DNA of 64,000 nucleotides, taken from positions 4,172,130 through 4,236,129 of the forward strand of contig CP064972.1 in the NCBI GenBank assembly GCA_016699405.1, read 5' to 3'. Position numbers and translations under genes: made by a program. The DNA is from Holophagales bacterium. GTDB lineage: Bacteria > Acidobacteriota > Thermoanaerobaculia > Multivoradales > JAGPDF01. Position 1 is the first letter of the stretch. Each line of letters opens with the position of its first letter. Positions 1 to 28,718 of the stretch are shown in pieces. Below the pieces are notes generated by a model. That model saw only the letters and a program-made list of their open reading frames with translations, was not told the DNA's origin and made no database searches.

Positions 1-665
1 AGCTGCCGTGGGGGGCGTGGGGAGCCTACGAGCTCCGCACCGCGCGACCGCCGCGCGAGCTCGACGGCTACCAGCCGCTCTGGGTCGACCGCGAACAGCT
101 CGAGCGGGCGCGGGTCGCGAACGGACGGATCCGCATCGGCGATCTCACCTTCCGACAGCTCTATCTCGACGTGGAGTACCTCGACCGCAACGCGCTCGCG
201 GCGATCGTGCGCCTGGCGAAGGCCGGCGCTCGCGTGACGCTCAAGCGCCACCCGCAGGAGCCCGGGCTCCGCCCCGCCGGCGACTACGCGTCGCTGCTCG
301 CCGAGCTCGCGGCGCAGCCCGGCGTCTCGTCCCGGCTCACGATCTCCGCGCCCCTGGTCGAAGGCGAAGGCCTCCCCGACTTCTGGGCCCGCGACGTCGA
401 CGGCGAGCTGCTGATCTTCTTCGCCCAGCCGCTGGCGCAGCACCTGACGCTGCCGCTGCGCTACGGACAGTCGCGGATGACCTCACCGCTCGAGCGCACC
501 GTCCGCATCCGCGCCAACGGCAGGTCGAGCGTCGTCCGGTTGGAATTCCAGCCGTACCAGTCGCTCCTGCTGAAGGTCGACCGCCGAGGAAGGGTCCGCT
601 TCGTCGACATCACCTTCGTACCCAAGTCGCCGCGAAGCGAAGCCGCCGCCGTGTCCCACCCGTAG
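1..665 (+). CDS. hypothetical protein, C-terminal portion (5' end lies upstream of window)
   Basis: Frame-3 ORF is open from the window edge to the stop at 663-665. Its amino-acid composition is balanced (…LPLRYGQSRMTSPLERTVRIRANGRSSVVRLEFQPYQ…), whereas the overlapping frame-2 ORF (8..680) is an R/A/P-rich artefact. Confidence 0.45.
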   Translation, partial: LPWGAWGAYELRTARPPRELDGYQPLWVDREQLERARVANGRIRIGDLTFRQLYLDVEYLDRNALAAIVRLAKAGARVTLKRHPQEPGLRPAGDYASLLAELAAQPGVSSRLTISAPLVEGEGLPDFWARDVDGELLIFFAQPLAQHLTLPLRYGQSRMTSPLERTVRIRANGRSSVVRLEFQPYQSLLLKVDRRGRVRFVDITFVPKSPRSEAAAVSHP

Positions 666-682
666 CCGGTAGCATCGGCACG

Positions 683-3241
683 ATGCCCCCGCTCGCCCCC
701 TTGCCGATCGACGAGGCGCTGCCGGCGCTGCTCGCCGCACTCGGCGGTGCACCGAACGCGGTGCTCCGCGCCCCGGCGGGGGCAGGCAAGACGACGCGGG
801 TGCCGCCGGCACTGCTCGAGGCGGGCCTCGTCGAAGGCCGATTGGTGATGCTCGAGCCGCGGCGCATCGCCGCCCGCGCCGCGGCGCGACGGATCGCCGA
901 CGAGCGCGGCTGGGAGGTCGGCCGCGAGGTCGGCTACCAGGTGCGTTTCGAACGGCGTGCCGGCCGCGACACCCGGCTGCTCGTCGTCACCGAAGGGATC
1001 CTCGTGCAGATGCTGCAAACCGACCCGTTCCTCGACGGGATCGGCGCGCTCGTCTTCGACGAAGTCCACGAGCGGTCGCTGTTCACCGACCTGGCCCTCG
1101 CCATAGCGCGGCGAGTGCAATGCGACGCCCGACCCGATCTGCGCCTGCTCGCCATGTCGGCCACGCTCGAGGCCGCACCGCTCGCCGCCTTTCTCGGCGA
1201 CTGTCCGGTCGTCGAGAGCACCGGCCGGCTCTTTCCGGTCGCCATCGACTACCTCGCACGACCCGACGAGCGACCTCTCGCGGCCCAGGTCGCCGGAGCG
1301 GTCCGACGCACCCTCGACGACCTCGACGGCGACCTGCTCGTCTTCCTGCCCGGTGTGGGCGAGATCCGTGCCGCCGAGGAGGCGCTCGCGCCGCTCGCCC
1401 TCGAACGGAACCTGGCGCTCGCACCGCTCTTCGGCGACCTTCCGGCCGAGCAGCAGGATGCGGCGCTGCGACCGCAGCGGCGCCGGCGGGTCGTCCTGGC
1501 GACCAACGTCGCGGAGAGCTCGGTGACCGTCGACGGGGTGCGGGCAGTCGTCGACTCCGGGCTGGCGCGGACGCTGCGCTACGACGCCGGGGTCGGCCTC
1601 GACCGGCTCGAGCTCGGCCGAGTGAGCCGTGCTGCCGCCGACCAGCGTGCCGGACGAGCCGGCCGGCAGGCGGCGGGCCGCTGCCTGCGGCTCTGGACCG
1701 AGAACGAACAGCGCGCACTGCTCGCCTTCGAACGACCGGAGATCGCCCGCGTCGATCTCGCCTGGCCGGCGCTCCAGCTCCTCACCTGGGGAGAACGGGA
1801 CCTCACGAGCTTCGGCTGGCTCGAGCCCCCCGACCCGGCCGCTCTCGCCCGGGCGCTCGACCTTCTCGCCGCCCTCGGGGCACTCGCTGACGGACACGTC
1901 ACGCCGCTCGGTCGGTCGATCGCCCGCCTGCCCCTGCACCCGCGACTCGCCCGGCTCCTGCTCGCCGGCCGAGCCCGCGGCGCGCTGCACGAGACGGCGA
2001 TCGCCGCGGCGCTGCTCGCCGAGCGCGACCCGTTCCGCGCGGAACGATCGCCGGGGCGCCGGCCCGATCTCGGCTCCCGGCGCACGGCGAGTCGTTCCGA
2101 TCTCGTCGACCGGGTCGAAGCGCTCGAGGCCTTCTCCCGCCGGCAGCGGACGAGCGACGAGTTGACGATCCAGGCCGGCGCGGCGCGGCAGGTCCTTCGC
2201 GCCGCAGAGCAGCTCGAATCCCTGGCCCGTCGCCAGGCCGACCTCGGTCCCCCCGAGGGGGACCCCTCGAGCAGCCCCGAAGAGGCGCTGCTCACCACGC
2301 TCGTCGAGGCCTATCCCGACCGGGTCGCCCGCCGACGCGAGCCCGGGAGTCCGCGGGCGGTGATGGTGGGCGGCCGCGGCCTGCGGCTCGCGCCGACCTC
2401 GGCCGTCGTCGAGGAGGAGCTCTTCGTCGCCGTCGACCTCGACGCCGGACGCGAGGGGCCGCAGAGCGAGGCGCTGGTCCGTCTCGCATCGGCCGTACGG
2501 CCGGAGTGGCTGCCGGCCGCCCAGCTCTCCGAGCGCGACGAGCTCGAGTTCGACGACCTGCGGGAGCGGGTCACCTGCCGGCGTCGCCGGCGCTTCGCCG
2601 ACCTGCTCCTCGACGAGCGGGAGGTGCCGGTCCGCGACGCCGAGGCCGCGGCCGAGCTCCTGGCGCGCGCCGCCACCGCCGACCCGCGTCGGGCGCTCGC
2701 CGTCACCGATTCCACCGCCGACCTCCTCGTCCGCGTCGCCTGCCTGCGCGAATGGCGGGGCGAGCTCGCCCTGCCCGCCTTCGACGACGCCGCGCTCGCC
2801 ACACTGCTGCCGGCCCTCTGCACCGGGCGACGCTCCTTCGCCGAGTTGCGGGCGCTCCCCCTGGCGGACATCCTGCTCGGGACGCTCACCCATGCCCAGC
2901 GTGAGGCGCTGACACGCGAAGCACCCGAGCGGATCGTCGTGCCGAGCGGCAGCGCCATCCGCCTGCGCTACGAGGTGGGGCGCCCTCCGGTGCTCGCCGC
3001 CCGCATCCAGGAGCTCTTCGGCCTCGCCGAGACGCCGCGCGTCGCCGGTGGGCGGGTGCCCGTGCTGCTCCACCTGCTCGCACCGAACTTCCGCCCGCAA
3101 CAGGTCACCGACGACCTGGCGAGCTTCTGGCGCACGACCTACCGCGAGGTCCGCCGCGAGCTCGCCGGTCGCTATCCGAAACACGCCTGGCCCGACGACC
3201 CGCTCGCTGTCGAGCCGCTGCGCGGTGCTCGTCGCCGCTGA
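683..3241 (+). CDS. hrpB: ATP-dependent RNA helicase HrpB (DEAH-box)
   Basis: Walker A APAGAGKTT, DEVHER (DEAH) motif, HA2 and C-terminal HrpB-type region (…LHLLAPNFRPQQVTDDLASFWRTTY…). About 850 aa. The upstream part of track ORF 8..3241 is a spurious N-terminal extension. Confidence 0.88.
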   Translation: MPPLAPLPIDEALPALLAALGGAPNAVLRAPAGAGKTTRVPPALLEAGLVEGRLVMLEPRRIAARAAARRIADERGWEVGREVGYQVRFERRAGRDTRLLVVTEGILVQMLQTDPFLDGIGALVFDEVHERSLFTDLALAIARRVQCDARPDLRLLAMSATLEAAPLAAFLGDCPVVESTGRLFPVAIDYLARPDERPLAAQVAGAVRRTLDDLDGDLLVFLPGVGEIRAAEEALAPLALERNLALAPLFGDLPAEQQDAALRPQRRRRVVLATNVAESSVTVDGVRAVVDSGLARTLRYDAGVGLDRLELGRVSRAAADQRAGRAGRQAAGRCLRLWTENEQRALLAFERPEIARVDLAWPALQLLTWGERDLTSFGWLEPPDPAALARALDLLAALGALADGHVTPLGRSIARLPLHPRLARLLLAGRARGALHETAIAAALLAERDPFRAERSPGRRPDLGSRRTASRSDLVDRVEALEAFSRRQRTSDELTIQAGAARQVLRAAEQLESLARRQADLGPPEGDPSSSPEEALLTTLVEAYPDRVARRREPGSPRAVMVGGRGLRLAPTSAVVEEELFVAVDLDAGREGPQSEALVRLASAVRPEWLPAAQLSERDELEFDDLRERVTCRRRRRFADLLLDEREVPVRDAEAAAELLARAATADPRRALAVTDSTADLLVRVACLREWRGELALPAFDDAALATLLPALCTGRRSFAELRALPLADILLGTLTHAQREALTREAPERIVVPSGSAIRLRYEVGRPPVLAARIQELFGLAETPRVAGGRVPVLLHLLAPNFRPQQVTDDLASFWRTTYREVRRELAGRYPKHAWPDDPLAVEPLRGARRR

Positions 3242-3376
3242 GACGACCGCACTACGCCTCGCGCCCGACGCGACGAAGCGCGCAAAAAGAGGCCTTCGCG
3301 CCGCTGCGACGACCCTGGCGCCGCATAGAATCCGTACCATCTCTTGGACAGTGCCCGAAGCGGGCAGGAGCGCGAC

Positions 3377-6300
3377 ATGTCGACCGATCTCGAGTGTGCT
3401 CTGTTGCGGACGAGAAGTGGCTGCGGCGCGGGGCGTCTCGCTCGCCTGACGCTGTTCGCCCTGACCTCCTGGCTCGCCGGAGGCATCGCCGCCGCACAGC
3501 CCGGCTCGCCCCCCACGGCGACACCTGCCGCTCCGCCGCATCTCGCCCAGGAGAAGCTCCCAGCCGCCGGTCGCCAGGCAACCGAGCTCGTCGTCGGCGA
3601 ATTCGGCCGCTATTCGATCCGTCTCGAGAGCAAGCAGGGCGTCGCCCTCCAGCTCGTCGACCGGATGAGCGGTCCCGGTGAGCTCACCGGCGAGACCGGC
3701 AAGCGCGACGGCCGCCTCGACCTCTTCCTCGATCGCGGCGCCGTGCGCCTGCTCACCTTCGGTCCGAAGCTCGGTCGCGGGGACGTGCGGATCGCCGTCT
3801 CCGGCTTTCGCGAGATCCACGCCCCCGAAGCGCCGCGTCTCCCAGAGCTGCGCCTGGTCACCGACGAGCTCGGCGACCTCGAGCAGGCCTCCTGGTGGAT
3901 CGAGCTGCCCGAACGCAAACAGGTGGTCCTCGAGGCGGCCGGGCGCTACCTCGCCGACCTGCGCCTCTGGCAGGGCGGCGCCTGGCTCGTCGACGCTCCG
4001 CCCGAGCACTCGCAGATCGAGCCGGTTGCCGGCCGCCCGCTGCACCTCTGCCGCCTGACGGCCGACCTCGAGCCCGGCCTCTATCGGCTCGTCGCCTACG
4101 GCGGCACGGAGACCGCCTGGGCGCGCGGCGGTCGCGAGAAGCCGCTCCTCCTGCGCTACGGCATCCCACGTCGCGGCGAGGCCGGACGCGAACGGATGAG
4201 CGTCGGGCCGTTCGGCTACGAACGCTTCCTGCTGCCCGGCAGCGCGACGCTCGCCCAGCTCGAGCTGCCGGAGGCCGGGAGCGCCACGCTCGAGCTCGCC
4301 GACTTCGACCCGGCACGGCCGTTCGAGGCCTGGGGACAGACCGGCGAGATCACCCCCGAGTCCGTGCCGCCGCTCGCGCAGCTCACCCGCGAGTCGACCG
4401 ACGGCAACGCGCTGCTGACCGTGCGCGGCGCGGTCGGTCAGGCCTACACCCTGCAACACTTCCGCGCCGAACGGCAGGTGGAGCTCACCGGGGACGGCGA
4501 CTTCTGGGTCGGCACCGTTCATTCCGGAACGGCGACCGACTCGATCGACGCCTCCGCCGTGATCTTCGAACGCGGCGCCAAGCGGACGAGCGCACTCGCC
4601 GGCTCGATGCCGGTGCTCTCGTCCAGCCAGGGTTGGGCCCGCCGCTTCAACCTGCTCGCCGAGGCGACGCTCTTCCTGCAGGTCGCCGAGCGCGCCGTGT
4701 ACGCGCTCGATCTCAACGGCGCGGCGCAAGTGCGCCTCGAGCCGCTGCTGCTCTCCGCGCCGGACGGCTATCAGGTGCCGCCGCTGCGCACCGCGCCGAC
4801 CACCTGGACGCTCGACAAGGGCCTCTACGTCCTGACCCTCGTGCCGACCGAGGCAGGAATCGTCGACGTCGCCATGCGTCGCAAGGGGTTGCTCGACCCG
4901 ATGTTCGACTGGGTCGGCCTGCACCAGGAGCCGCCGGCGACGGCGGCGCTCGGCGCGGCGCAGATGACGGCCATCCGGCTGTCCCGCAAGCTCGACTACA
5001 CCCTGCTGGTCGCCACCCAGCCCGGAGTCGACGTGGGACCGGTCGTGCGCAAGCTGCCGCTCGATCTCACCGAGCCGCTGCCCTTGTCGCTCGTGCCTGG
5101 GCAGGAGATCGAGGTGCCATTCCGTGCCACCTCGCGTGGCCGACTCACCGCACCCGCCGAGGACGGCACCGCGCTCGAGGTGGCGGTCGACGGCGCGGCA
5201 TTCGCCGGCATGGCGACCGTCGAGCCCGGAACCCATCGCGTCCGCGTTCGCTCCCGGGCCACCGACACGCTCGCCGCGTCGCTGGCGCTCGTGTCCGAGG
5301 AACAGGCGTCCGACACCCCGATGCCGCGACTCGACCCGGCCGCGCTCGCCGCACTCCCGGCCTTCACCACCCTCACCGAGCCGGCGCCGGCGGCCTTCGA
5401 CCTGGCGCGCGGCGAGAGCCGCACGATGCTGGTCGAGGCGGCGTCGCCTGCCCTCTACACGCTCGAGACCACCGGACTGCTCGCCACTTCGGGCGCCGTC
5501 CGCACACGGGTCCAGCCGCGCCTAGCGAGCGAGGAGAAGAACGGCAGCGGACGCAACGTCTCGCTGCGCTCCTATCTGCGCGAGGGCAGCTATCAGTTCA
5601 CCGTACGAGCGCTCGGCGAATCGGCGGGGCATCTCGGTGCCCGGCTGCGTCGCGCCGAGGTACGCGAAGGGGGACGGCTCGTCGACGGCATCGCCGCTCG
5701 CACCGAGCTTCCGGCCGGCGAGTCGATCGCTTACCGCTTCCGCGTCGATCGCGAGGGCGACTACCACCTCCACGCCGTGCGACTCGGCGGACATCTCGAC
5801 GTCCGGCTCGAGGACGACCAGGGCTTCCCCCCGGCGGCTCCGGTGATGTCCGGCGACTCGACGGTCCATCTCCTGCCGGGCGACTATCGCCTCTTCGTCC
5901 TGCCCCAGGCGGTGCCGACTCGCGCGGTCACGGTCGTCGAGCGCCGGGTCGAGGCGGTCGAACGGAGCGGACACGGCCCGTTCGAGCTCGCCCTGACGCG
6001 CGAAGACGGCAACCTCTGGCTCGAACCCGAGCAGGAGTCGTCGCCGCGCGATCCCGACCGCTGGCGCTTCACGCTGCCGGCAACCACCGGCGTGAAGATC
6101 TCGCTCGACGCCGAGATGGAAGGCGACCTCCGGCGCCTCGACCGCGCACCGGCGACCGGCGAACGCCTCGCCTTCGTCGCGCCGGGTCGCGGCTTCGCCG
6201 GCGAGCTCGCCGCCGGCCGCTACGAGCTCGCGGTTCGTTGCTCGCGACGCAACAGCCAGGTGCGCTACCGGCTGAGCGTCGCTCCGGACGCACTCGTCGA

Positions 6301-8770
6301 CGGTCTCTCGCGCCTGATCACCGCGCCGGCCGTCCTGCCGGTCGCGGTCGGCGAGGAGGGTCTCGTCGAGCTCGCCTCGTTCGGCGGCGCCGACGTGCGC
6401 GCCCGCCTGGTCGACGCCAACGACGAGCTCCTGGCGAGCGGCGACGACCGGCCGGGAGACTGGAACTTCGTCGTCGCCCGCAAGCTCGCGCCCGGCAACT
6501 ACCGCCTGCGCGTCGACCCGGTCGGTTCGGCGACCGCCGACACGACCGTCTCGATGCGCATGCCGCACGAGCGCGACGCCGAGACCTGGAAGCTCCCCGA
6601 GCCGCTGAAGATCGACCTCGCCGACGAGGCGGTGCGCATTCCGCTGCGACTCGGCAACGATGCCGACCTGCTGGCAATCGTGGCCGTCGCCGCCGAGCCG
6701 CTCGGTCTCGAGCTCGAGCAGCGCCAGTCTGGTGCCTGGCGGCTCCTCTCGAGCGCCGAAGGCACGACGCCGCGCCTGCTCCTGCCACTCGCCTCCGGCA
6801 GCCGACCGGAGCTCCGGCTCCGCCTGCGCTCCCTCGACCGTCGACCCGGCAGCGTCCGCCTCGCCGCCTTCGCCGGCCGCGCCCCACGCGCCAACGAGAA
6901 GACCCTGGCATCGGGTCTCGACTTGCCGCGCCTTCCCGGACTGCTCCCACCGGTCGCCGCCGCCGCGGTGACGCTCGACCGACCGGGATGCCTCGCCCTG
7001 GAGGCCGCACCGGAGGAGCTCCTGCACTCGCGGCGCGCCGGTGAGCCGCTCGCCGCACAGCCGGGCGCCCTCGTCGCCGACGGAACGCTCCTCTGGCTCG
7101 CCGCGCCGGCGGAATCCGCGGGTGCGATCCGGGTCACCGCGCGTCGCGCCGCGATCGGCCGCGAGGCGCTTTCGCTGCGGCTCGCCGCCGGCGAGCAGGT
7201 GCGCTGCGACCTCGCGCCCTCGAAGGGTCTCTCCTTCGTCGAGGCGCAGGCGCTCGCCGGCGAGCCGCTCGTCGCCGCACCGAGCGACGGTCAGCCGCCG
7301 GCGTTCGAGCGCGTCACGCTGACCGGCCGGCACCGGGCGTCCACCCTGGCCCGCTCCGGCAGTCACAGCGTGGTCGCGAGAAACGCCGGCAACACACCGA
7401 TCGAGCTGCGTCTCACCGCCGTGGCGCTCTCCTCGGCGCCAGCGCGGCCGTCGACTTCGCCCGGCGCCCACGAGCTCCGTCTCGCGGCTCGCAGCCTGCA
7501 GACGATCCCGCTCGGCAGTGCGGCGAAGTCGGTCCGTCTTGCGCTCGGCGAGGGCGCGGCGGCCTGGATCGGCAGCGAGAACGCTCCGGAGGCCTTCGGA
7601 TGGGCGTCCGACGAGACCGGGGAGGTGAGTCTCGCGACGACCGCACCGGCCCTCGTCCTGGTCAACCCGACCGAGGTCGAGATCGCCGCCCGGCTCGACC
7701 TGCGCGCGCCCGACCCGGACGACGCGAGCGTCGCGATCGGCCCCGGCGCTCGACTCGAACGGCGATTCCGTCGCGGCGGCGGCCTGCAGCTCCCCGTCCA
7801 GGCCGGAAGCGGTGCGGCCCGTCTCCACCTGCGCGGCGCCGAGGCGGTGCTGATCGGCGCCGACGGCTCGGTCGCCCGGGGTCACGAGCTGGCGCTGCCG
7901 GCCGGCGGCGGGACACTGCGGATCGAGCATCCGCCCGGACTGATGACGCTCTGGGTCGAGGGCAAGGACCACACCCTCGCCAGCTATGGATTCGCCGCCA
8001 GCGCTCCCCAGCAGGCGGCTCCGCCGCTGACCCTGGAGCTCGACGGCGCGGCCCGGCTCGTCGAGCTCCAGGTGGCGACCCCCGCCCTGCTGTCGCTGCG
8101 CTCGGCCTCGCCGCTCGCCGTCGCGCTGCTCGACGAGCACGGCGAGGTCCGACGCTTCGTGCCGTTCGAGCGGGAGGTCGCCTTCGATGCGCCTCTGGCT
8201 CCCGGCACGACACGTTTCGTCGTCCGGGCGCTCGCCGGCGAGCCGCTCACCGGACGACTCGAGGTCTCGCTCGGCGAGCTCGCGCCGCTCGGCGAAGGGC
8301 TCGGTGCGGCGACTCTCCTCGCCCCGGGCGAGGCCCGTGGCTATCGCTTCCAGGTCGAGCGTCAGGGACCTGTCGGTGTCGGCGCCCACGCGGATGCGGG
8401 GAACGTCGAGACGGTGGTCTTCGACTCGACGGGGACGCCGCTCGGCCGCGGCGTGGTGCAGTGGCTGGAGCTTTCGCCCGGCCCGTACACGATGGCGCTC
8501 GTCGGTCCGGCGGAGGCGAGCCCGGCGCTCGCCCGGCCGGCGCTCGTCGGCATCTCCAAGCCCGGGGAGGGACCGCCGGGCGATGTCGTCCGCAAGCTCC
8601 TCGAGCTCGACCGCGGCGGCCCGCCACCGGAGGGTCGTGGGGTGACCGGAGAGGAGGACGTGGCGTTCCCGTTCGGCCGCAACGCCAACCGTGAGATGGA
8701 ACAGGAACAGGAAGGCGAGACGGACGAGCCGTCCGCAGACGAGTCCGACGAGAGCGGAGGTGACCGATGA
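3377..8770 (+). CDS. large secreted repeat protein built from pre-peptidase-C-terminal-like β-sandwich repeats; function unknown
   Basis: ATG at 3377 is preceded by GGAG. N-terminal signal peptide (RLARLTLFALTSWLAGGIAAAQP). At least 10 degenerate repeats with the pattern D..(W/Y)RF.L…G.Y.L.V…, for example DPDRWRFTLPATTGVKISLD…GRYELAVRCS and GDYHLHAVRLGGHLDVRLEDD. Acidic C-terminal tail. The stop overlaps the next gene's start (ATGA at 8767-8770). Confidence 0.7.
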   Translation: MSTDLECALLRTRSGCGAGRLARLTLFALTSWLAGGIAAAQPGSPPTATPAAPPHLAQEKLPAAGRQATELVVGEFGRYSIRLESKQGVALQLVDRMSGPGELTGETGKRDGRLDLFLDRGAVRLLTFGPKLGRGDVRIAVSGFREIHAPEAPRLPELRLVTDELGDLEQASWWIELPERKQVVLEAAGRYLADLRLWQGGAWLVDAPPEHSQIEPVAGRPLHLCRLTADLEPGLYRLVAYGGTETAWARGGREKPLLLRYGIPRRGEAGRERMSVGPFGYERFLLPGSATLAQLELPEAGSATLELADFDPARPFEAWGQTGEITPESVPPLAQLTRESTDGNALLTVRGAVGQAYTLQHFRAERQVELTGDGDFWVGTVHSGTATDSIDASAVIFERGAKRTSALAGSMPVLSSSQGWARRFNLLAEATLFLQVAERAVYALDLNGAAQVRLEPLLLSAPDGYQVPPLRTAPTTWTLDKGLYVLTLVPTEAGIVDVAMRRKGLLDPMFDWVGLHQEPPATAALGAAQMTAIRLSRKLDYTLLVATQPGVDVGPVVRKLPLDLTEPLPLSLVPGQEIEVPFRATSRGRLTAPAEDGTALEVAVDGAAFAGMATVEPGTHRVRVRSRATDTLAASLALVSEEQASDTPMPRLDPAALAALPAFTTLTEPAPAAFDLARGESRTMLVEAASPALYTLETTGLLATSGAVRTRVQPRLASEEKNGSGRNVSLRSYLREGSYQFTVRALGESAGHLGARLRRAEVREGGRLVDGIAARTELPAGESIAYRFRVDREGDYHLHAVRLGGHLDVRLEDDQGFPPAAPVMSGDSTVHLLPGDYRLFVLPQAVPTRAVTVVERRVEAVERSGHGPFELALTREDGNLWLEPEQESSPRDPDRWRFTLPATTGVKISLDAEMEGDLRRLDRAPATGERLAFVAPGRGFAGELAAGRYELAVRCSRRNSQVRYRLSVAPDALVDGLSRLITAPAVLPVAVGEEGLVELASFGGADVRARLVDANDELLASGDDRPGDWNFVVARKLAPGNYRLRVDPVGSATADTTVSMRMPHERDAETWKLPEPLKIDLADEAVRIPLRLGNDADLLAIVAVAAEPLGLELEQRQSGAWRLLSSAEGTTPRLLLPLASGSRPELRLRLRSLDRRPGSVRLAAFAGRAPRANEKTLASGLDLPRLPGLLPPVAAAAVTLDRPGCLALEAAPEELLHSRRAGEPLAAQPGALVADGTLLWLAAPAESAGAIRVTARRAAIGREALSLRLAAGEQVRCDLAPSKGLSFVEAQALAGEPLVAAPSDGQPPAFERVTLTGRHRASTLARSGSHSVVARNAGNTPIELRLTAVALSSAPARPSTSPGAHELRLAARSLQTIPLGSAAKSVRLALGEGAAAWIGSENAPEAFGWASDETGEVSLATTAPALVLVNPTEVEIAARLDLRAPDPDDASVAIGPGARLERRFRRGGGLQLPVQAGSGAARLHLRGAEAVLIGADGSVARGHELALPAGGGTLRIEHPPGLMTLWVEGKDHTLASYGFAASAPQQAAPPLTLELDGAARLVELQVATPALLSLRSASPLAVALLDEHGEVRRFVPFEREVAFDAPLAPGTTRFVVRALAGEPLTGRLEVSLGELAPLGEGLGAATLLAPGEARGYRFQVERQGPVGVGAHADAGNVETVVFDSTGTPLGRGVVQWLELSPGPYTMALVGPAEASPALARPALVGISKPGEGPPGDVVRKLLELDRGGPPPEGRGVTGEEDVAFPFGRNANREMEQEQEGETDEPSADESDESGGDR

Positions 8771-11700
8771 ACGCCGAGACCTCGATCCACCCCGTTGACC
8801 GCGCGAGCGTCGCCGGTCCCTGGCGCGGAGCGACGTCGCGGCGCTCCGCCCGCGTCGCCCTCCTCGCTGCCGCGCTGGTGCTTACCAGCGGCCCGTGGCT
8901 CCAGGCCGCCGAATCCCCTGCGACGCCGCCGACGCGCCCGGCCCGTCCTGCGGCGTCCACCGGATCGACCGTCGTCGTGCCGGACCGCTTCCTGCGTCGG
9001 TGGGATCCGCTGACGGTCTTCTTCGCCGCCGATCTCGGCCCCTCGTCCGGCGGCCCCGAGGATCATCCCGAGCGCGTCGTGTCGATCACGCCGGCGCAGC
9101 CCGGCGCCTTCACCTGGCTCGACGCCCGCACCCTCCAGTTCCAACCCGCCGAGCCGTGGCCGGCGCTCGCCCGCGTCACCGTCAAGGCGGCGGAGGGGAC
9201 GTTCCGCCTGTCGACGCTGCTGTCGCCGCCGATCGCCTCGCAGCCCAGCGCCGGCGCGGAGGGTCTCGCGCCGGTCGACGAGATCGCGCTGACCTTCTCC
9301 GAGCCGCTCCCCGACGAAGCGCTGGCCCGCGCCCTCGCCATCGAGATCCGACCGCTCCCCGGCTTCGGTGAGGGCGGCGCTCGTGCTCTGGCGCGCGACG
9401 ACTTCGCCGTCAAGCGGCTGGAGCGCGGCAAGCCCTCGGATCCGGCAACCTACGTCCTGTCGCTGCGCCAGCCGATCGCCCTCGGCCAGCGCGTCACCGT
9501 GCGCTTCCGGCTCTCGCTCGACGAAGCGCCGGACAAGACCTTCGCCGAGCTCGTCTTCGCCACCGCCGAACCGTTCCGCGCCCTGCGTTTCGGCTGCCGG
9601 ATCGCCCAACTCCCGGTCGTCCCCGGCGGGGCGCGCTACACCGCCGAGCAGGCTCTCGCCTGTGAGGACGGCGACCCGGCGGTGGTCGTCGACTTCTCCG
9701 CCCTGCCGCGCGAGCTCGGTCCCGTGGCGGCACGCAATCTGGTGCGCCTCTCCCCCACCGTGCCGAACCTCGAGGCCAAGCTCTCGGGCAAGCGGCTCGA
9801 GCTGCGCGGCGACTTCGCGCGCGAAACCGCCTATCGCGTGTCGCTCGCGCCGACGCCGCTCACCGACGAGCGAGGCCGCAAGCTCGACCTGCAGGGACCC
9901 AACGAGCTCACCCTCGCCTTCCCGCGCGCTCCCTCCTATCTCCGATTGGCCTCGGGCTTCGGACTCGCCGAGCGGAACGGCCCGCAGATGATCCCGGTCA
10001 CCGGGCGCGGGGACGAGCGCGTCGACCTGCGCCTCCACCGCATCGAGCCGCTCGATCGCTCCTTCTGGCCGTTCGGCGACGTGCCCGTCGAGGTGGACGA
10101 GGGCGAGCGCCCGCCGGGACCGGGCGAGCGGCCCGAGCCGTGGAAGCGCGCCGACAGCGGTCCGCCGCAGGCCGAGCTGGCGCGGCGCATCGCCGCCCTC
10201 GGCTCGCCGCCGATCTCGGCGCTGGTCGACCTGCCGTTGCGTCGCGACGGAGGCACCGCGTCGTTCGGCCTCGACCTCGGGCCGCACCTCGCGCGGCTGG
10301 CTGGCGCCGGCGAGCCCGGCACCTATCTCGTCGGCCTGCGCCGCCTCGGCGCCTCGGAGAAGCGCTCCTGGATGCGCTTGCAGGTCTCCGATCTCGCGCT
10401 CACCACGCTCGAGGAGCCGCACCGCGTCGTCTTCGCCGTGACCTCGCTCGCCTCGGCGTTGCCGGTGGCCGGAGCCCAGGTGACCGTCGAAGGGACCGAG
10501 TGGGCAGGCAGCAAGGCGTCCTGGGTCGAGCTCTTCCGCGGCTCGACGGACGGCACGGGGCAGGTCGTCTGGACCGCCCCGGGACCGATGGAAGGGGGTC
10601 GCCGCAGCGTGCGGCGCATCGTCGTCAGTCGCGGCAACGACACTCTGGTGCTCGACCCCGAACAGGCGCCGGACGGCTTCGCCGACAACCGCTGGTCGCG
10701 CACCTACGGCGACTGGCTCGCCTGGACGCAGGAGTCGCTCGACGATCGTGGCGCCCACGCGGAGCGGCTCGCGCACCTCTTCACCGAGCGACCGGTCTAT
10801 CGCCCGGACGAACCGGTCCACGTCAAGGCGTTCCTGCGCACCCGCAGCGAGGGTCACCTCGAGCCGATCGCCGACGAGCTGCAGTTGGTGATCGAAGGAC
10901 CGGGCGATCTCGTCTGGCGCTATCGCGTCACGCCGAACGCGCTCGGCTCGGTCTACTGGAAGTTCGACGAGAAGGACCTGCCGACCGGCACCTACCGTGC
11001 CCACTTCGAGCCGCTCGACGGCGGCGAGGAGGTCTCCGGTGCCGTCGCGTTCCGCAAGGAGGCCTACCGTCTCCCGCGCTTCGAGGTGCGACTCGACGGA
11101 CCCGATCGCGCACCGCTCGATCGCGAGCTCGACGTCAAGCTCACCGCCACCTACTACGCCGGTGGCCGGGTCGCCGCGCGACCGATCGAATGGCGGGTCA
11201 CGCAGTTCCCCTACGATTGGTCGCCCAAGACGCGCCCGGGATTCCTCTTCTCGTCCGACTCGCGCTTCTCGCGCGAGAGCCGCTTCGAGTCGACCCCGGC
11301 GATCGAGCAGGCAGGGGTGACCGACGAAGACGGCGGCGCCAAGCTGACGATCAATCCGGCGATCGAACCGACCTCGCAGCCTCGCACCTACGTCGTCGAG
11401 GCGACGGTGGTCGATGCCGACGACATGACGGTCAGCGCCACGCGCCAGGTCGTCGCGCTTCCGCCGATCCTCCTGGGACTGAAGGTTCCGCGCTACGTCG
11501 AACGCGCCGGGACGCTGCGTCCGCAGATCCTCGTGCTCGGTCCGGACGACAAGCCGGTGGCCGGCCAGTCGGTGACGGTACGGCTCTCGCAACGGCGCTG
11601 GCACTCCTATCTGCGCGCCTCCGACTTCTCCGACGGCGTGGCGCGCTACATCACCGAAGTGGTCGACGAGAAGCTCTCGGAGTCCGTCGTCACCAGTGGC

Positions 11701-14676
11701 ACGGACGCCCTCGACGTTCCGCTCGAACTGCCCGAGGCCGGCGTCTACGTCGTCGAGCTCGAAGCGCGCGATCGGCTCGGTCGCGCCCAGACGATGGCCG
11801 TCGACCTCTTCGCCGGCGGTGGCGAGCCGGTGGCCTGGCCGAAGCCGGCGACCGCCGTCTTCCAGGTCACCCCGGACAAGGCTCGCTACGAGCCCGGCAC
11901 GACCGCACGACTGGTCCTGCAGAGCCCGTTCCAGAGCGGCGAGGCGCTCTGCGTCGTCGAGGCACCGGACGGCAACCGCTACTCCTGGCTGCCGGTGCGC
12001 GGCGGACAGGCGGTCTTCGAGCTCCCGGTCGACGGCAGCTTCACGCCGCGCGTTCCCGTTCACTTCCTGCTGCTGCGTGGACGCCTGCCCGGAAGCGCGC
12101 CGGTTCCCGGCAACGCCACCGACCTCGGGCGCCCGGCGACCTTCGGCGCCACCGTCTGGCTCGATGTCGAGCCGACGGCTCATCGGCTCTCCCTCGAGCT
12201 CGCCTACCCGGCGCAGGCACGGCCGGCGCAGGAGATCGACGTCGCCATCACCCTGAAGGACCCGGCCGGCAAACCGCTCGCCGGCGAGGTCACGCTCTGG
12301 CTCGTCGACCAGGCGGTCCTGGCGCTCGGTCGCGAGCAGCGGCTCGACCCGGTACCGAGCTTCCTCACCGCCGTGACGAGCTACTTCTCGGCTCGCGACA
12401 CGCGCTCGCTGGTCTTCGGCTACCTGCCGTTCGCCAAGCAGCCCGGCGGCGACGAGGGCGAAGAGAGCAAGTCGCTGCTCGACCGGCAGACGGTGCGCAA
12501 GAACTTCCAGCCGGTGCCGTACTACAACCCGGCGATCGCCGTCGGGCCGGACGGCGTCGCCCGCGTCAAAGTGAAGCTCCCCGACGACCTGACCAATTTC
12601 ATGCTGCGCGCCAAGGCGGTCGCCGGCAACGAGCGCCTCGGCTTCGCCACGGGCAAGATCGAGGTTCGCCAACCGGTCGTCCTGCAACCCTCGCTGCCCC
12701 GCTTCGTCCGGCCAGGCGACCTCTTCTCGGCCACCGCCGTCGGCCGCCTGCTCGAAGGGGCCGCCGGCGCCGGACGTGCCGAGGCGCGACTCGAAGGGCT
12801 CGAACCGCGAGGGGAGACGCACGCGACCTTCGAGTGGACGGCCAATCGCCCGACACGGCTCGACTTCCCGGTCTCCGTGCCCACACCCGGCTACGACGCC
12901 GAGGGCCGGCTGACGCGACGCGAGGTGGTCGTGCGCATGGGTGCCGAACGGACGAGCGATAACGCCGGCGATGCCTTCGAGGTCCGCCTGCCGATCCGCG
13001 ACGACCGCGATCGCGTCGTCCTGCGCGCCCTCGGCGAGCTCAAGGCGGGCGAGGCGTGGAAGCTCCCGGAGCCCACAGAAGCGACGCGACCCGGCTCGCT
13101 CAAGCGCAAGCTCCTGGTGTCGAACGACCCGGCGCTCGCCGCCATGTCCGCCGGCCTCGACTTCCTCCTCGCCTACCCCTACGGCTGCACCGAGCAACGG
13201 CTCGCCACCACGCGCGCCCAGGTGGCGCTCAAGCGGTTCCGCGAGTTGCTCCATCTCGAGGGAGGAGAGAAGCAGCTCGACCGCGCGGTGGCCGACACGA
13301 TGGCCTGGCTGCCGCTCGTCCAGCAGCCGAGCGGGCTCCTGTCGTACTGGCCGGGCGGCTCCGCCTCGGTGTCGCTGACCGCGTGGGCCGCCGAGTTCCT
13401 CGCCGAAGCGCGCGACGCCGGCTACACGGTCGATGCGGGCGTCGAGGAGCGGGCGCTGCGCGCACTGGCCCAGGCGCTGCGCTCCGACTACTCCGGCTTC
13501 CTCGACGGCGAGGCCTGGGCGGAGCGCACCTGGGCGCTACGCGCGCTGGCGCGTTCCGGCAAGTTCGACCCGGCCTACGGCAACGAGCTCGCGCGACGCG
13601 CCCAGATGCTCGACCTCGAGAACGTGGCGAGCGTGCTCACCGCGTTCGACCGCGCCGGCAAGGGCGACTCGCCGGCGCTGCCGCCGCTCGAAGAGACGTT
13701 GTGGAAGGGGTTCGTCGTGCGGCTCTGGCAGGGTCGGGAGACCTACGGCGGGCTGCAGACCGGCCGGCGCGCCGCAAGCTCGCTCATCCTTCCTTCGGAG
13801 ACCCGGACGATCGCCGAGATGACGCGCGCGCTCGTTCCGCGTGCTTCCGGAGCCGAAGAGGAGAAGCGGCTGGCCATCCTCAGCGACGCCCTCGTCGCGC
13901 TCGGGCGCGGCGATGGCTGGGGCTCGACCAACGCCAACGCCGCGGCGATCCTCGCCCTCTCCGAGCTCCTCGCGCACGGACGGCCCGGCGCACCGGAGGC
14001 GAGCGCGACACTGCGCACCGTCGACGGCGAGCGGCACCTCGCGCTTTCCGAGCGCGAGCCGACCGCCTACTGGACGTCGACGCGGCCGGGAGCCGCCGAG
14101 CTGATGCTCGCCGCGACAGGAGCCGGCAAGGTCCTGGCGCGCGCCGAGGCGAGCTACCTGCCCGCCGCCGACGGGAGCCAGGCGGCGGCACGGCGGGACG
14201 GCTTCGTGGTCACCCGCGAGCAGCTGGTGCTGCGCGGCGAAGCGGCCCCGGGCAGCGCGATCGTGCCGGAGCGGATCGCTCTCGACCAGCCGGGCAAGAG
14301 CGTGGCACTCACCGTCGGCGAGGTGGTCGAAGAGCACGTGCAGGTCGTCAACCCGCAGGACCGCACCTACGTCGCCGTGGCCGTGCCGCTCGCCGCGGGG
14401 TTCGAGCCGCTCAACCCGAACCTCGAGACGGCACCGCCGGAGGCCAAGCCCGCGGGCCAGCTCACCTTGGCGCCGACCTACGCCTCGTACCTCGACGACC
14501 AGGTGACCTGGTACTTCGACTCGCTGCCGAAGGGCACCTACGACTTCTACTTCCGCGTTCGTGCCCAGATCCCCGGCAGCTTCATCCAGCCGCCGGCCAA
14601 GGCCGAGGCGATGTACGACGCCAGCCAGATCGGCACCAGCCCCGGCGCGCGGGTGGAAGTGAGGCCGAAGCCGTAG
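8767..14676 (+). CDS. bacterial alpha-2-macroglobulin family protein (thioester-containing, YfhM/ECAM-like)
   Basis: 1,969 aa. GGAGG RBS. Signal peptide. Thioester motif GCTEQ encoded at 13183-13197 (…AYPYGCTEQRLATT…). Size and MG-domain-like N-terminal region are typical of bacterial A2M. Confidence 0.85.
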   Translation: MNAETSIHPVDRASVAGPWRGATSRRSARVALLAAALVLTSGPWLQAAESPATPPTRPARPAASTGSTVVVPDRFLRRWDPLTVFFAADLGPSSGGPEDHPERVVSITPAQPGAFTWLDARTLQFQPAEPWPALARVTVKAAEGTFRLSTLLSPPIASQPSAGAEGLAPVDEIALTFSEPLPDEALARALAIEIRPLPGFGEGGARALARDDFAVKRLERGKPSDPATYVLSLRQPIALGQRVTVRFRLSLDEAPDKTFAELVFATAEPFRALRFGCRIAQLPVVPGGARYTAEQALACEDGDPAVVVDFSALPRELGPVAARNLVRLSPTVPNLEAKLSGKRLELRGDFARETAYRVSLAPTPLTDERGRKLDLQGPNELTLAFPRAPSYLRLASGFGLAERNGPQMIPVTGRGDERVDLRLHRIEPLDRSFWPFGDVPVEVDEGERPPGPGERPEPWKRADSGPPQAELARRIAALGSPPISALVDLPLRRDGGTASFGLDLGPHLARLAGAGEPGTYLVGLRRLGASEKRSWMRLQVSDLALTTLEEPHRVVFAVTSLASALPVAGAQVTVEGTEWAGSKASWVELFRGSTDGTGQVVWTAPGPMEGGRRSVRRIVVSRGNDTLVLDPEQAPDGFADNRWSRTYGDWLAWTQESLDDRGAHAERLAHLFTERPVYRPDEPVHVKAFLRTRSEGHLEPIADELQLVIEGPGDLVWRYRVTPNALGSVYWKFDEKDLPTGTYRAHFEPLDGGEEVSGAVAFRKEAYRLPRFEVRLDGPDRAPLDRELDVKLTATYYAGGRVAARPIEWRVTQFPYDWSPKTRPGFLFSSDSRFSRESRFESTPAIEQAGVTDEDGGAKLTINPAIEPTSQPRTYVVEATVVDADDMTVSATRQVVALPPILLGLKVPRYVERAGTLRPQILVLGPDDKPVAGQSVTVRLSQRRWHSYLRASDFSDGVARYITEVVDEKLSESVVTSGTDALDVPLELPEAGVYVVELEARDRLGRAQTMAVDLFAGGGEPVAWPKPATAVFQVTPDKARYEPGTTARLVLQSPFQSGEALCVVEAPDGNRYSWLPVRGGQAVFELPVDGSFTPRVPVHFLLLRGRLPGSAPVPGNATDLGRPATFGATVWLDVEPTAHRLSLELAYPAQARPAQEIDVAITLKDPAGKPLAGEVTLWLVDQAVLALGREQRLDPVPSFLTAVTSYFSARDTRSLVFGYLPFAKQPGGDEGEESKSLLDRQTVRKNFQPVPYYNPAIAVGPDGVARVKVKLPDDLTNFMLRAKAVAGNERLGFATGKIEVRQPVVLQPSLPRFVRPGDLFSATAVGRLLEGAAGAGRAEARLEGLEPRGETHATFEWTANRPTRLDFPVSVPTPGYDAEGRLTRREVVVRMGAERTSDNAGDAFEVRLPIRDDRDRVVLRALGELKAGEAWKLPEPTEATRPGSLKRKLLVSNDPALAAMSAGLDFLLAYPYGCTEQRLATTRAQVALKRFRELLHLEGGEKQLDRAVADTMAWLPLVQQPSGLLSYWPGGSASVSLTAWAAEFLAEARDAGYTVDAGVEERALRALAQALRSDYSGFLDGEAWAERTWALRALARSGKFDPAYGNELARRAQMLDLENVASVLTAFDRAGKGDSPALPPLEETLWKGFVVRLWQGRETYGGLQTGRRAASSLILPSETRTIAEMTRALVPRASGAEEEKRLAILSDALVALGRGDGWGSTNANAAAILALSELLAHGRPGAPEASATLRTVDGERHLALSEREPTAYWTSTRPGAAELMLAATGAGKVLARAEASYLPAADGSQAAARRDGFVVTREQLVLRGEAAPGSAIVPERIALDQPGKSVALTVGEVVEEHVQVVNPQDRTYVAVAVPLAAGFEPLNPNLETAPPEAKPAGQLTLAPTYASYLDDQVTWYFDSLPKGTYDFYFRVRAQIPGSFIQPPAKAEAMYDASQIGTSPGARVEVRPKP

Positions 14677-26312: not shown

Positions 26313-28718
26313 ATGAAGACGGGCGCGCTCGCCCGCCTGCGGCGTCGTCTGCCGTCGCGTCGCGTGCTGGGACGCTCGGCGCTCGCTCTGGCCGGCGTCG
26401 GCGCCGCGGCGCTCGCGGCCCTCGCCTTGTCGCGCGCCCGGCTCGAGTCGCCCGCGCCGACCCTCCTCGCCCGCGACCGGAGCGGCCAGTACCTTGGCGA
26501 GTTGCCGGCCGGCGACGACGACCGGCTCGGCTTCTGGCCCGCGACACCGATCCCGGAGCGCGTCGCCGCCGCGACGCTGGCGATCGAAGACCGTCGTTTT
26601 CGTCTCCATCCGGGCGTCGACCCGCTCGCCCTGCTCCGCGCCCTGCGCCAGAACCTCACCGCCGGTCGCCGCGTCTCCGGCGCCTCGACACTCGCCATGC
26701 AGGTCGCCCGGATGCAGCGCCCCGGCTCCCGCGGCTACTGGCGCAAGGCGCTCGAGGCCGCCACCGCGCTCCTCCTGACGGCGCGCTACGGCCGCGATGC
26801 CGTGCTCGCCCACTACTTGAGGATCGTGCCCTACGGCAATCGCATCCACGGGATCGCCTACGCGGCGCGGCGCTACCTCGACAAGCCGGTCGACGACCTC
26901 TCGTGGGCCGAGGTGGCCTTCCTCACCGCCATCCCCCAGTCGCCCGCTCGGATGAACCCCTACGACCCGCGCGGGCGCCTGCGGGCGATCCAGCGCGGGC
27001 GAGAGATCCTCGGACGACTGGCCGAACGAGGCGACCTCCCGGCCCGGGATCTCGCCGTGGCGCTCGACGAGATCGAGCACCTGCGCCTGCCCTGGCGCGG
27101 CGAGCGACCGGCCGCGGCGATCCACCCGCTGCTTGCTCTGGCCCGCCAGGTGCCCGAGGCCTGGCGCGCCAGCCGTCCGCTCCTCGCCACCACGCTCGAG
27201 CTCGAGCTGCAGCGCGAGGCCGAATGGCTCGCCTACCGCACGGTGGCCGACGAGTCCGACCGCGGCGCCGGCAACGCCGCGGTGCTGATCGTCGATCGCG
27301 CGAGCTGGGAGGTGCGGGCGGCGGTCGGCTCGACCGGGTACTTCGACACGCGACGCGGCGGCGCCATCGACTACCTGCGGCTGCCCCGCTCTTCCGGGTC
27401 GACGCTCAAGCCGCTGCTCTTCGCCCAGGCGCTCGAGCGCGGGACGATCGCTCCCAACACCGTGCTCGACGATCTCGAGCCCGGGCCGGGGGGGATCCTC
27501 AACTCCGACGAGCGCTACCTCGGCCCGCTGCTGCCGCGACTGGCGCTCGCCAACTCGCGCAACGTGCCGGCGGTCGAATTGCTGTCGCGTCTCGGCCTCG
27601 ACGCCTTCTACGGCTTCCTCGCCGATCTGCGCCTGCATGCCCACGAAGAGACGGCACGGCACTACGGTCTCGGCCTGGCGATCGGCTCGCTGCCCGTCAC
27701 GCTCGAGCGGCTCGTCACCGCCTACACCGTGCTCGCCGGCGACGGACGGCTGCAGGAGCTGCGCTGGCTCGCCGGCGCCCCGAGCCCCGAGGCACCACGC
27801 CGCGTGAGCGAAGCGACGGCGCGGCGGATCACCCTCTTCCTCGCCGATCCGCAGGCCCGGCTTCCGACCTTCCCGCGGATGGGCTTCTCCGAGTACCCGT
27901 TCCCGGTGGCCGTGAAGACCGGCACGTCGTCGCGTTACCGCGACGCCTGGACCGTCGCCTGGTCGGAGCGCTACCTCGTCGGCGTCTGGGTGGGACACCC
28001 CGACGAGCGGCCGATGAGCGCGCTCTCCGGGTATCGCATCGCCGCCCGGCTCACCCAGACGCTGCTCGAGCGACTGCACCGCGACGAGCTCGACGGCCAG
28101 TCCGGCCGCTCGTTCCCGCCTCCCGCCGGCGAGCATGCCGAACGGCTCTGCGCGCTCACCGGCGCGCGCGCCACCGCGGCCTGCGATCGCGTGCTGCTCG
28201 AGTGGCTGCCCGACGGCATCCCGGCCCCGGGCGACTGCCGCGCTCACCGTCAGGTGGGGATCGATCGCCGCAACGGGGCGATCGCCAACGCCGCCACGCC
28301 GCCCGCCGAGGTGGAGATGCGCACCTTCGTCGACCTGCCGACGCGCTACGCCGCGTGGCTGATCCACCAGGGGGTGCCGAGCCTGCCGCAGGCGCTCGCC
28401 GACGCGGCGCATCGCGCCGAGGCCCAGGTGCTCGATCTCTCCGGCCAGCTGCCGCGGGTCGAGATCACCGCCCCCGAGCCCGGCACGCGCATGCTGCGCG
28501 ATCCGGAGACACCGCCCGAGCTCAACACGCTCCGCCTCGCGGCGGCGGTCGAGCCGCCGGTGCCGCAGCTCGTCTGGTATCTCGACGGCCGCCCCCTGGC
28601 GACGGTCGAGAGGCCGTACACGCTGCGCTGGCAGCTCGAGCCCGGCGAACACGTCTTCCAGGCCCGCGTGCCGTTCAGCGAGGCACGCTCGCCGCTGGTG
28701 CGGATCACCGTCGAGTAG
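26313..28718 (+). CDS. pbpC: penicillin-binding protein 1C (bifunctional transglycosylase/transpeptidase)
   Basis: Transglycosylase EDRRFRLHPGVD, transpeptidase SSGSTLKP, PbpC-type C-terminal domain. 801 aa. Confidence 0.85.
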   Translation: MKTGALARLRRRLPSRRVLGRSALALAGVGAAALAALALSRARLESPAPTLLARDRSGQYLGELPAGDDDRLGFWPATPIPERVAAATLAIEDRRFRLHPGVDPLALLRALRQNLTAGRRVSGASTLAMQVARMQRPGSRGYWRKALEAATALLLTARYGRDAVLAHYLRIVPYGNRIHGIAYAARRYLDKPVDDLSWAEVAFLTAIPQSPARMNPYDPRGRLRAIQRGREILGRLAERGDLPARDLAVALDEIEHLRLPWRGERPAAAIHPLLALARQVPEAWRASRPLLATTLELELQREAEWLAYRTVADESDRGAGNAAVLIVDRASWEVRAAVGSTGYFDTRRGGAIDYLRLPRSSGSTLKPLLFAQALERGTIAPNTVLDDLEPGPGGILNSDERYLGPLLPRLALANSRNVPAVELLSRLGLDAFYGFLADLRLHAHEETARHYGLGLAIGSLPVTLERLVTAYTVLAGDGRLQELRWLAGAPSPEAPRRVSEATARRITLFLADPQARLPTFPRMGFSEYPFPVAVKTGTSSRYRDAWTVAWSERYLVGVWVGHPDERPMSALSGYRIAARLTQTLLERLHRDELDGQSGRSFPPPAGEHAERLCALTGARATAACDRVLLEWLPDGIPAPGDCRAHRQVGIDRRNGAIANAATPPAEVEMRTFVDLPTRYAAWLIHQGVPSLPQALADAAHRAEAQVLDLSGQLPRVEITAPEPGTRMLRDPETPPELNTLRLAAAVEPPVPQLVWYLDGRPLATVERPYTLRWQLEPGEHVFQARVPFSEARSPLVRITVE

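Follow-up and report, generated by a model that had tools for sequence, protein, structure and literature searches.

In the literature that we searched, bacterial α2-macroglobulins (A2Ms) are divided into Type I proteins, which carry a thioester and are encoded with pbpC, and Type II proteins, which lack the thioester and belong to the mag operon (PMC5764988). The presumed role of Type I is the trapping of proteases in the periplasm together with wall repair (PMC5764988, PMC4498604). In the window—the whole 64,000-nucleotide stretch of a Holophagales genome analysed here—a long-form thioester A2M is the second gene of a pair, the first of which (hereafter X) encodes a giant exported protein, raising the question of what such a partner contributes to a macroglobulin. 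Our analysis of the locus, its relatives and the predicted fold of X points to X as a third and previously undescribed component of the bacterial A2M/PBP1c module, a proposed periplasmic defence system. A first-pass annotation of this DNA had considered a giant partner for an A2M to be undescribed, and the literature that we searched likewise held no description of one; the archaeal A2M neighbourhoods discussed in PMC8416519 are not of the X–A2M arrangement.

The X–A2M gene pair in the window

Both open reading frames have coding-type composition (GC3 of 0.88 for X and 0.91 for A2M), and at NCBI the X product is 100% identical to a hypothetical protein of the same length from a Holophagales MAG. 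The start codon of A2M overlaps the stop codon of X, as the first-pass annotation had recognized; it had the length of A2M right as well, but gave X as 1,798 aa, which translation corrects to 1,797 aa. Its placement of the operon just downstream of hrpB holds in the window, but this linkage is not kept in the three relatives examined. On the other side of the pair, genes for ApbE, DUF3570 and DUF4266 lie on the opposite strand. A scan for promoters and terminators gave no information, its counts being equal to the shuffle expectation, and Rfam gave no match within the window.

Features of the X–A2M locus, with coordinates counted from the first nucleotide of the window.
Feature	Coordinates	Strand	Basis
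hrpB, upstream of X	8–3241		Domain searches
Shine–Dalgarno-like AGGAG, 6 nt before the X ATG	3366–3370	+	Sequence read
Gene X, 1,797-aa exported multi-β-sandwich protein	3377–8770	+	ORF from ATG 3377 to TGA 8770; translation
X signal peptide, aa 1–40, hydrophobic core LTLFALTSWLAGGIAAA, putative AAA/Q cleavage site	3377–3496	+	Sequence; site by eye
About 15 β-sandwich domains (PPC/collagen-binding-domain/CUB-like jelly-roll), aa ~56–1724	3542–8548	+	
X domain D9, aa 975–1063, most PPC-like at sequence level	6299–6565	+	Family alignment; Pfam on homologue
Short C-terminal helix of X, aa 1735–1745, after conserved PPxTGPPxEV motif	8579–8611	+	DSSP on AF2 model; family consensus
Disordered acidic C-terminal tail of X	8627–8767	+	pLDDT <50 (AF2)
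X/A2M coupling junction: GGAGGT (8756–8761) within the X end, ATGA (8767–8770)	8756–8770	+	Sequence
Long-form thioester A2M, 1,969 aa	8767–14676	+	Pfam bMG3, MG2, A2M_BRD, A2M, bMG10
A2M signal peptide, aa 1–47, putative LQA/A cleavage site, no lipobox	8767–8907	+	Sequence; site by eye
A2M N-terminal module, aa ~48–540, highly conserved (VVVPDRFLRRWDP...)	8908–10386	+	Many invariant columns
A2M bait-region domain, aa 1033–1187	11863–12327	+	Pfam A2M_BRD, E 2.9e-15
Thioester motif GCTEQ, aa 1473–1477	13183–13197	+	Sequence
A2M C-terminal bMG10 domain	14200–14619	+	Pfam bMG10, E 3.6e-28
pbpC-like class A PBP (Transgly, Transpeptidase, BiPBP_C), 11.6 kb downstream of A2M	26313–28718	+	Pfam; ORF coordinates

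Every homologue of X has a Sec-type N terminus, and a lipobox-like motif turns up just once among 118; in the AF2 model of the window protein, the N terminus contains only a low-confidence helix (aa 23–34). The remainder bears out the initial description of a giant, non-enzymatic protein built of PPC-like β-sandwich repeats. The repeats are tightly packed and have the fold of PPC/collagen-binding domains, CUB-type jelly rolls are found among the Foldseek neighbours, and neither sequence nor fold searches reveal a recognizable peptidase or other catalytic domain. At the sequence level, the window protein has no match in Pfam at E ≤ 0.01 (PPC PF04151 included) and none in NCBIfam, and the X family profile has none among PDB sequences at E ≤ 1. 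In the region equivalent to D9, PF04151 matches the homologue P0023 with 28.9 bits (cut-off 25.9), and the homologues P0052 and P0114 lie slightly under this cut-off (24.5 and 25.4 bits). D9, at a mean identity of 56% across the X family, holds the family-conserved motif DDRPxDWNF (aa 1023–1031, nt 6443–6469), in which all three D, the W and the N are invariant. BLASTP comparison of X with itself and Tandem Repeats Finder on its DNA both found no repeats; the repeats are ancient and are detectable only by profile or structure. The acidic tail, EMEQEQEGETDEPSADESDESGGDR, had also been singled out at first pass and recurs in relatives, the last 40 residues being at least 25% D/E in 48 of 61 X family members (median across the 61, 33%).

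The A2M is related to YfhM (ECAM) of Escherichia coli by pairwise BLASTP (23% identity over 988 aa), in an alignment that pairs the thioester motif YPYGCTEQ (aa 1470–1477) with YPYGCLEQ of YfhM; phmmer against PDB sequences gave no match at E ≤ 1e-3. Beyond the domains tabulated with their scores, Pfam assigns A2M (E 4.9e-13) and MG2 (E 1.2e-11). The N-terminal module has only weak Big_10 and Big_5 matches and no bMG1 or bMG2, domains that are matched at E 1e-48 to 1e-51 in ECAM, which is described as inner-membrane-anchored (PMC4498604). The module occupies the position that the bMG1/bMG2 anchor domains have in ECAM. A lipobox-like motif occurs in 1 of 118 long-form A2Ms, whereas YfhM has LAGC. 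The 120 A2M homologues span 1,611–2,131 aa, 118 of them exceeding 1,850 aa. The A2M of the window carries SRRSARV, which raised the idea of Tat export; the family consensus does not preserve the twin arginine, and the idea was abandoned. Among 70 X-linked A2Ms read at the thioester position, 62 keep CTEQ; in 7, the thioester cysteine is lost and X is retained, indicating that X has a role that does not depend on thioester chemistry.

Synteny, spread and co-evolution

The pairing of X with A2M is strictly conserved. In all 72 informative loci (those with enough downstream DNA), A2M lies downstream of X on the same strand, and in 40 of these 72 the two genes share the 4-nt overlap of the window. 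The same picture emerges from the other direction: each of three look-ups that began from an A2M found an upstream gene of 1,863–2,155 aa without Pfam matches, a 4-nt overlap and pbpC downstream. Where gaps of about 1 kb between X and A2M were examined, they are secondary insertions: one locus has acquired a toxin–antitoxin-like pair and the other an IS200/RAYT-like transposase. No further neighbours are conserved except for generic response regulators in 12 loci, and no X–A2M fusion protein occurs among the top matches listed.

The first-pass annotation had taken the X arrangement to stand in place of the usual linkage of A2M with pbpC, a view that the relatives contradict. In 46 of 62 related loci, pbpC directly follows A2M, giving the order X–A2M–pbpC, so that X is an addition to the A2M–pbpC module; a cultured example is Dongia sedimenti R-7 (locus L061), with X, a GCTEQ A2M and pbpC in that order. 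In the window, pbpC is not adjacent to A2M, and the pbpC-like gene further downstream, the product of which shares 31% identity over 679 aa with PbpC of E. coli, is probably the displaced third member.

The X family is unnamed and comprises 655 clusters at 50% identity (E ≤ 1e-30), with more than 560 homologues at NCBI. X is present in at least 243 species-level genomes from many phyla, among them Acidobacteriota, Nitrospirota, Elusimicrobia, Myxococcota and Proteobacteria. The length of X and the order of its domains are strongly preserved across the family, domains D10–D14 are poorly conserved, and X evolves faster than its partner (mean identity to the window proteins of 39.5% for X versus 54.8% for A2M). 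The evolutionary distances of X and A2M are closely matched, with a mirror-tree correlation of 0.92 over 36 loci, although shared inheritance of adjacent genes also yields such correlations. With column numbers equalized, these 36 loci give 0.84, where the split-half ceiling is 0.86–0.89. The partial correlation of X with A2M given PbpC is 0.65–0.84, whereas that of X with PbpC given A2M is around 0.

Possible roles of X

On balance, we lean towards X, the first gene of a conserved X–A2M(–pbpC) envelope operon, encoding an accessory subunit or scaffold that serves this A2M subtype in the periplasm and has no catalytic activity. The two proteins are made together by virtue of the conserved 4-nt start/stop overlap, and both have signal peptides without a lipobox. 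In the periplasm, X may then bind A2M as a dedicated accessory subunit, acting as a rigid scaffold that would position, stabilize or gate an otherwise unanchored trap, with docking probably occurring through the conserved N-terminal module of A2M. That X might replace the lipid anchor is an idea based on one X-less comparator sequence, that of E. coli, and on the literature.

Fold comparison raises the alternative that X is a macroglobulin itself, a highly diverged A2M/TEP paralogue serving as a second trap without recognizable motifs. In a Foldseek search of the PDB with the N-terminal half of X, A2ML1, C4, C3, C5 and TEP1 are among the best E-values (2.4e-8 to 6e-4), and X is similar in size to A2Ms. 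We nevertheless rejected this reading as extremely improbable, given that X has no Pfam matches, that a comparison of the X and A2M families by hhalign returns a probability of 0.1% and that CxEQ occurs in 0 of 61 X family members. This last result, from the search for a thioester motif that had been recommended at first pass, also makes a thioester-based second trap unlikely. With X very probably not an MG-domain paralogue and the pair syntenic in relatives, neither of the two outcomes that the first-pass annotation had named as counting against its proposal was found. The missing thioester also weighs against the proposal that X is a recognition or decoy arm, the jelly-rolls of which bind, or are cut by, intruding proteases, lysozymes or lytic factors that are presented to or sensed by A2M. 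The fast evolution of X and the poor conservation of D10–D14 could just as well reflect a role in which X faces outwards and binds targets. However, X has no bait-like or inhibitor motif, its fold likenesses to PliG and CUB are generic β-sandwich matches, and its conserved length and domain order, together with a high pTM, suggest that the architecture is fixed and not that of a decoy to be consumed; we therefore regard such an arm as unlikely.

There are two further readings. As an envelope-structural or polymer-binding protein, X would engage peptidoglycan, exopolysaccharide or an outer-membrane component, acting beside PBP1c and A2M but not bound to A2M, with the three merely co-regulated. 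This seems quite unlikely to us, as X is linked to A2M and not to pbpC, the two remaining adjacent even where pbpC is absent or displaced; the distances of X follow those of A2M with next to no residual correlation with PbpC, and the conserved overlap argues for synthesis matched to A2M. Alternatively, X could be a dedicated chaperone for the folding or export of A2M, or could store it, holding the large soluble A2M inactive and stable until it is required and then being released or degraded. The translational coupling of the two genes is in keeping with this, as are the requirement of MagB for the stability of MagD (PMC5764988) and the disordered acidic tail, a trait common in chaperone-like proteins. 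A rigid 190-kDa protein of 15 domains would, however, be an unusually costly chaperone, and the sequence of X resembles no known periplasmic chaperone in searches of Pfam, NCBIfam and PDB sequences, so that we consider this role improbable. An accessory subunit or scaffold of A2M remains our preferred assignment for X.

Comparison with known systems

PPC-type domains are familiar from PF04151 and from the collagen-binding domains of clostridial collagenases (ColG s3a/s3b, ColH s3). X differs from these in having around 15 copies rather than one to three and in that its repeats are not C-terminal to a secreted peptidase, with no catalytic domain attached; collagen binding by X is not expected in such environmental bacteria. 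In eukaryotes, large multi-domain proteins without a thioester hold, stabilize or regulate a thioester protein, including LRIM1/APL1C with mosquito TEP1 and, for complement, the CCP-repeat regulators and the CUB-containing C1r/C1s/MASP. Their likeness to X is by analogy only, with no sequence relationship. A bolder proposal, which we rate as doubtful, is that the long-form A2M and X together make up a complement-like machine of two components for periplasmic surveillance, which would add a third class to the bacterial A2M systems. In such a machine, the thioester protein would be held by the conserved domains D1, D2, D6, D9 and D15 of X, while D10–D14, which evolve fast, would recognize a variety of intruding enzymes or envelope polymers that have been damaged, and X would target or gate the activation of A2M in the manner of LRIM1/APL1C–TEP1 or of assemblies of CUB proteins and complement.

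Among bacterial systems, the Type II mag operon (Pseudomonas aeruginosa magABCDEF; the yfaS cluster of E. coli) provides a functional precedent for an A2M co-expressed with accessory partners: the operon-encoded MagA, MagB and MagF are needed for complex formation and stability of the Type II A2M MagD (PMC5764988). The window locus is not of this type, as its A2M has the thioester and is accompanied by one accessory gene rather than five, with no neighbours of the MagA, MagB, MagC, MagE or MagF type. The Yfa/Mag partner proteins presumably belong to DUF families, and in the Pfam scan no family at all matched X.

The closer resemblance is to Type I, as represented by yfhM–pbpC of E. coli and SaA2M of Salmonella, with which the window A2M shares CxEQ, the bait-region domain and bMG3, MG2, A2M and bMG10, and most X–A2M relatives share a pbpC directly after A2M. 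It departs from Type I in being around 300 aa longer, in having no lipobox and another N-terminal module in place of bMG1/bMG2, and in its distance from pbpC. Furthermore, X, of about 1,800 aa, precedes and overlaps A2M, whereas E. coli has no such gene and sseA lies divergently upstream of yfhM. The X–A2M locus represents a widespread third arrangement, with at least 655 clusters at 50% identity in many phyla, in which an A2M that has the thioester but no membrane anchor is strictly accompanied by a partner of 190 kDa. If X binds A2M, this would show how bacterial A2Ms that lack an anchor are held in place or controlled, and it would supply a function for a large family whose members are annotated as hypothetical. 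It would also widen the concept of an A2M at the centre of a multiprotein complex in the periplasm, drawn from Type II, to include the thioester A2Ms.

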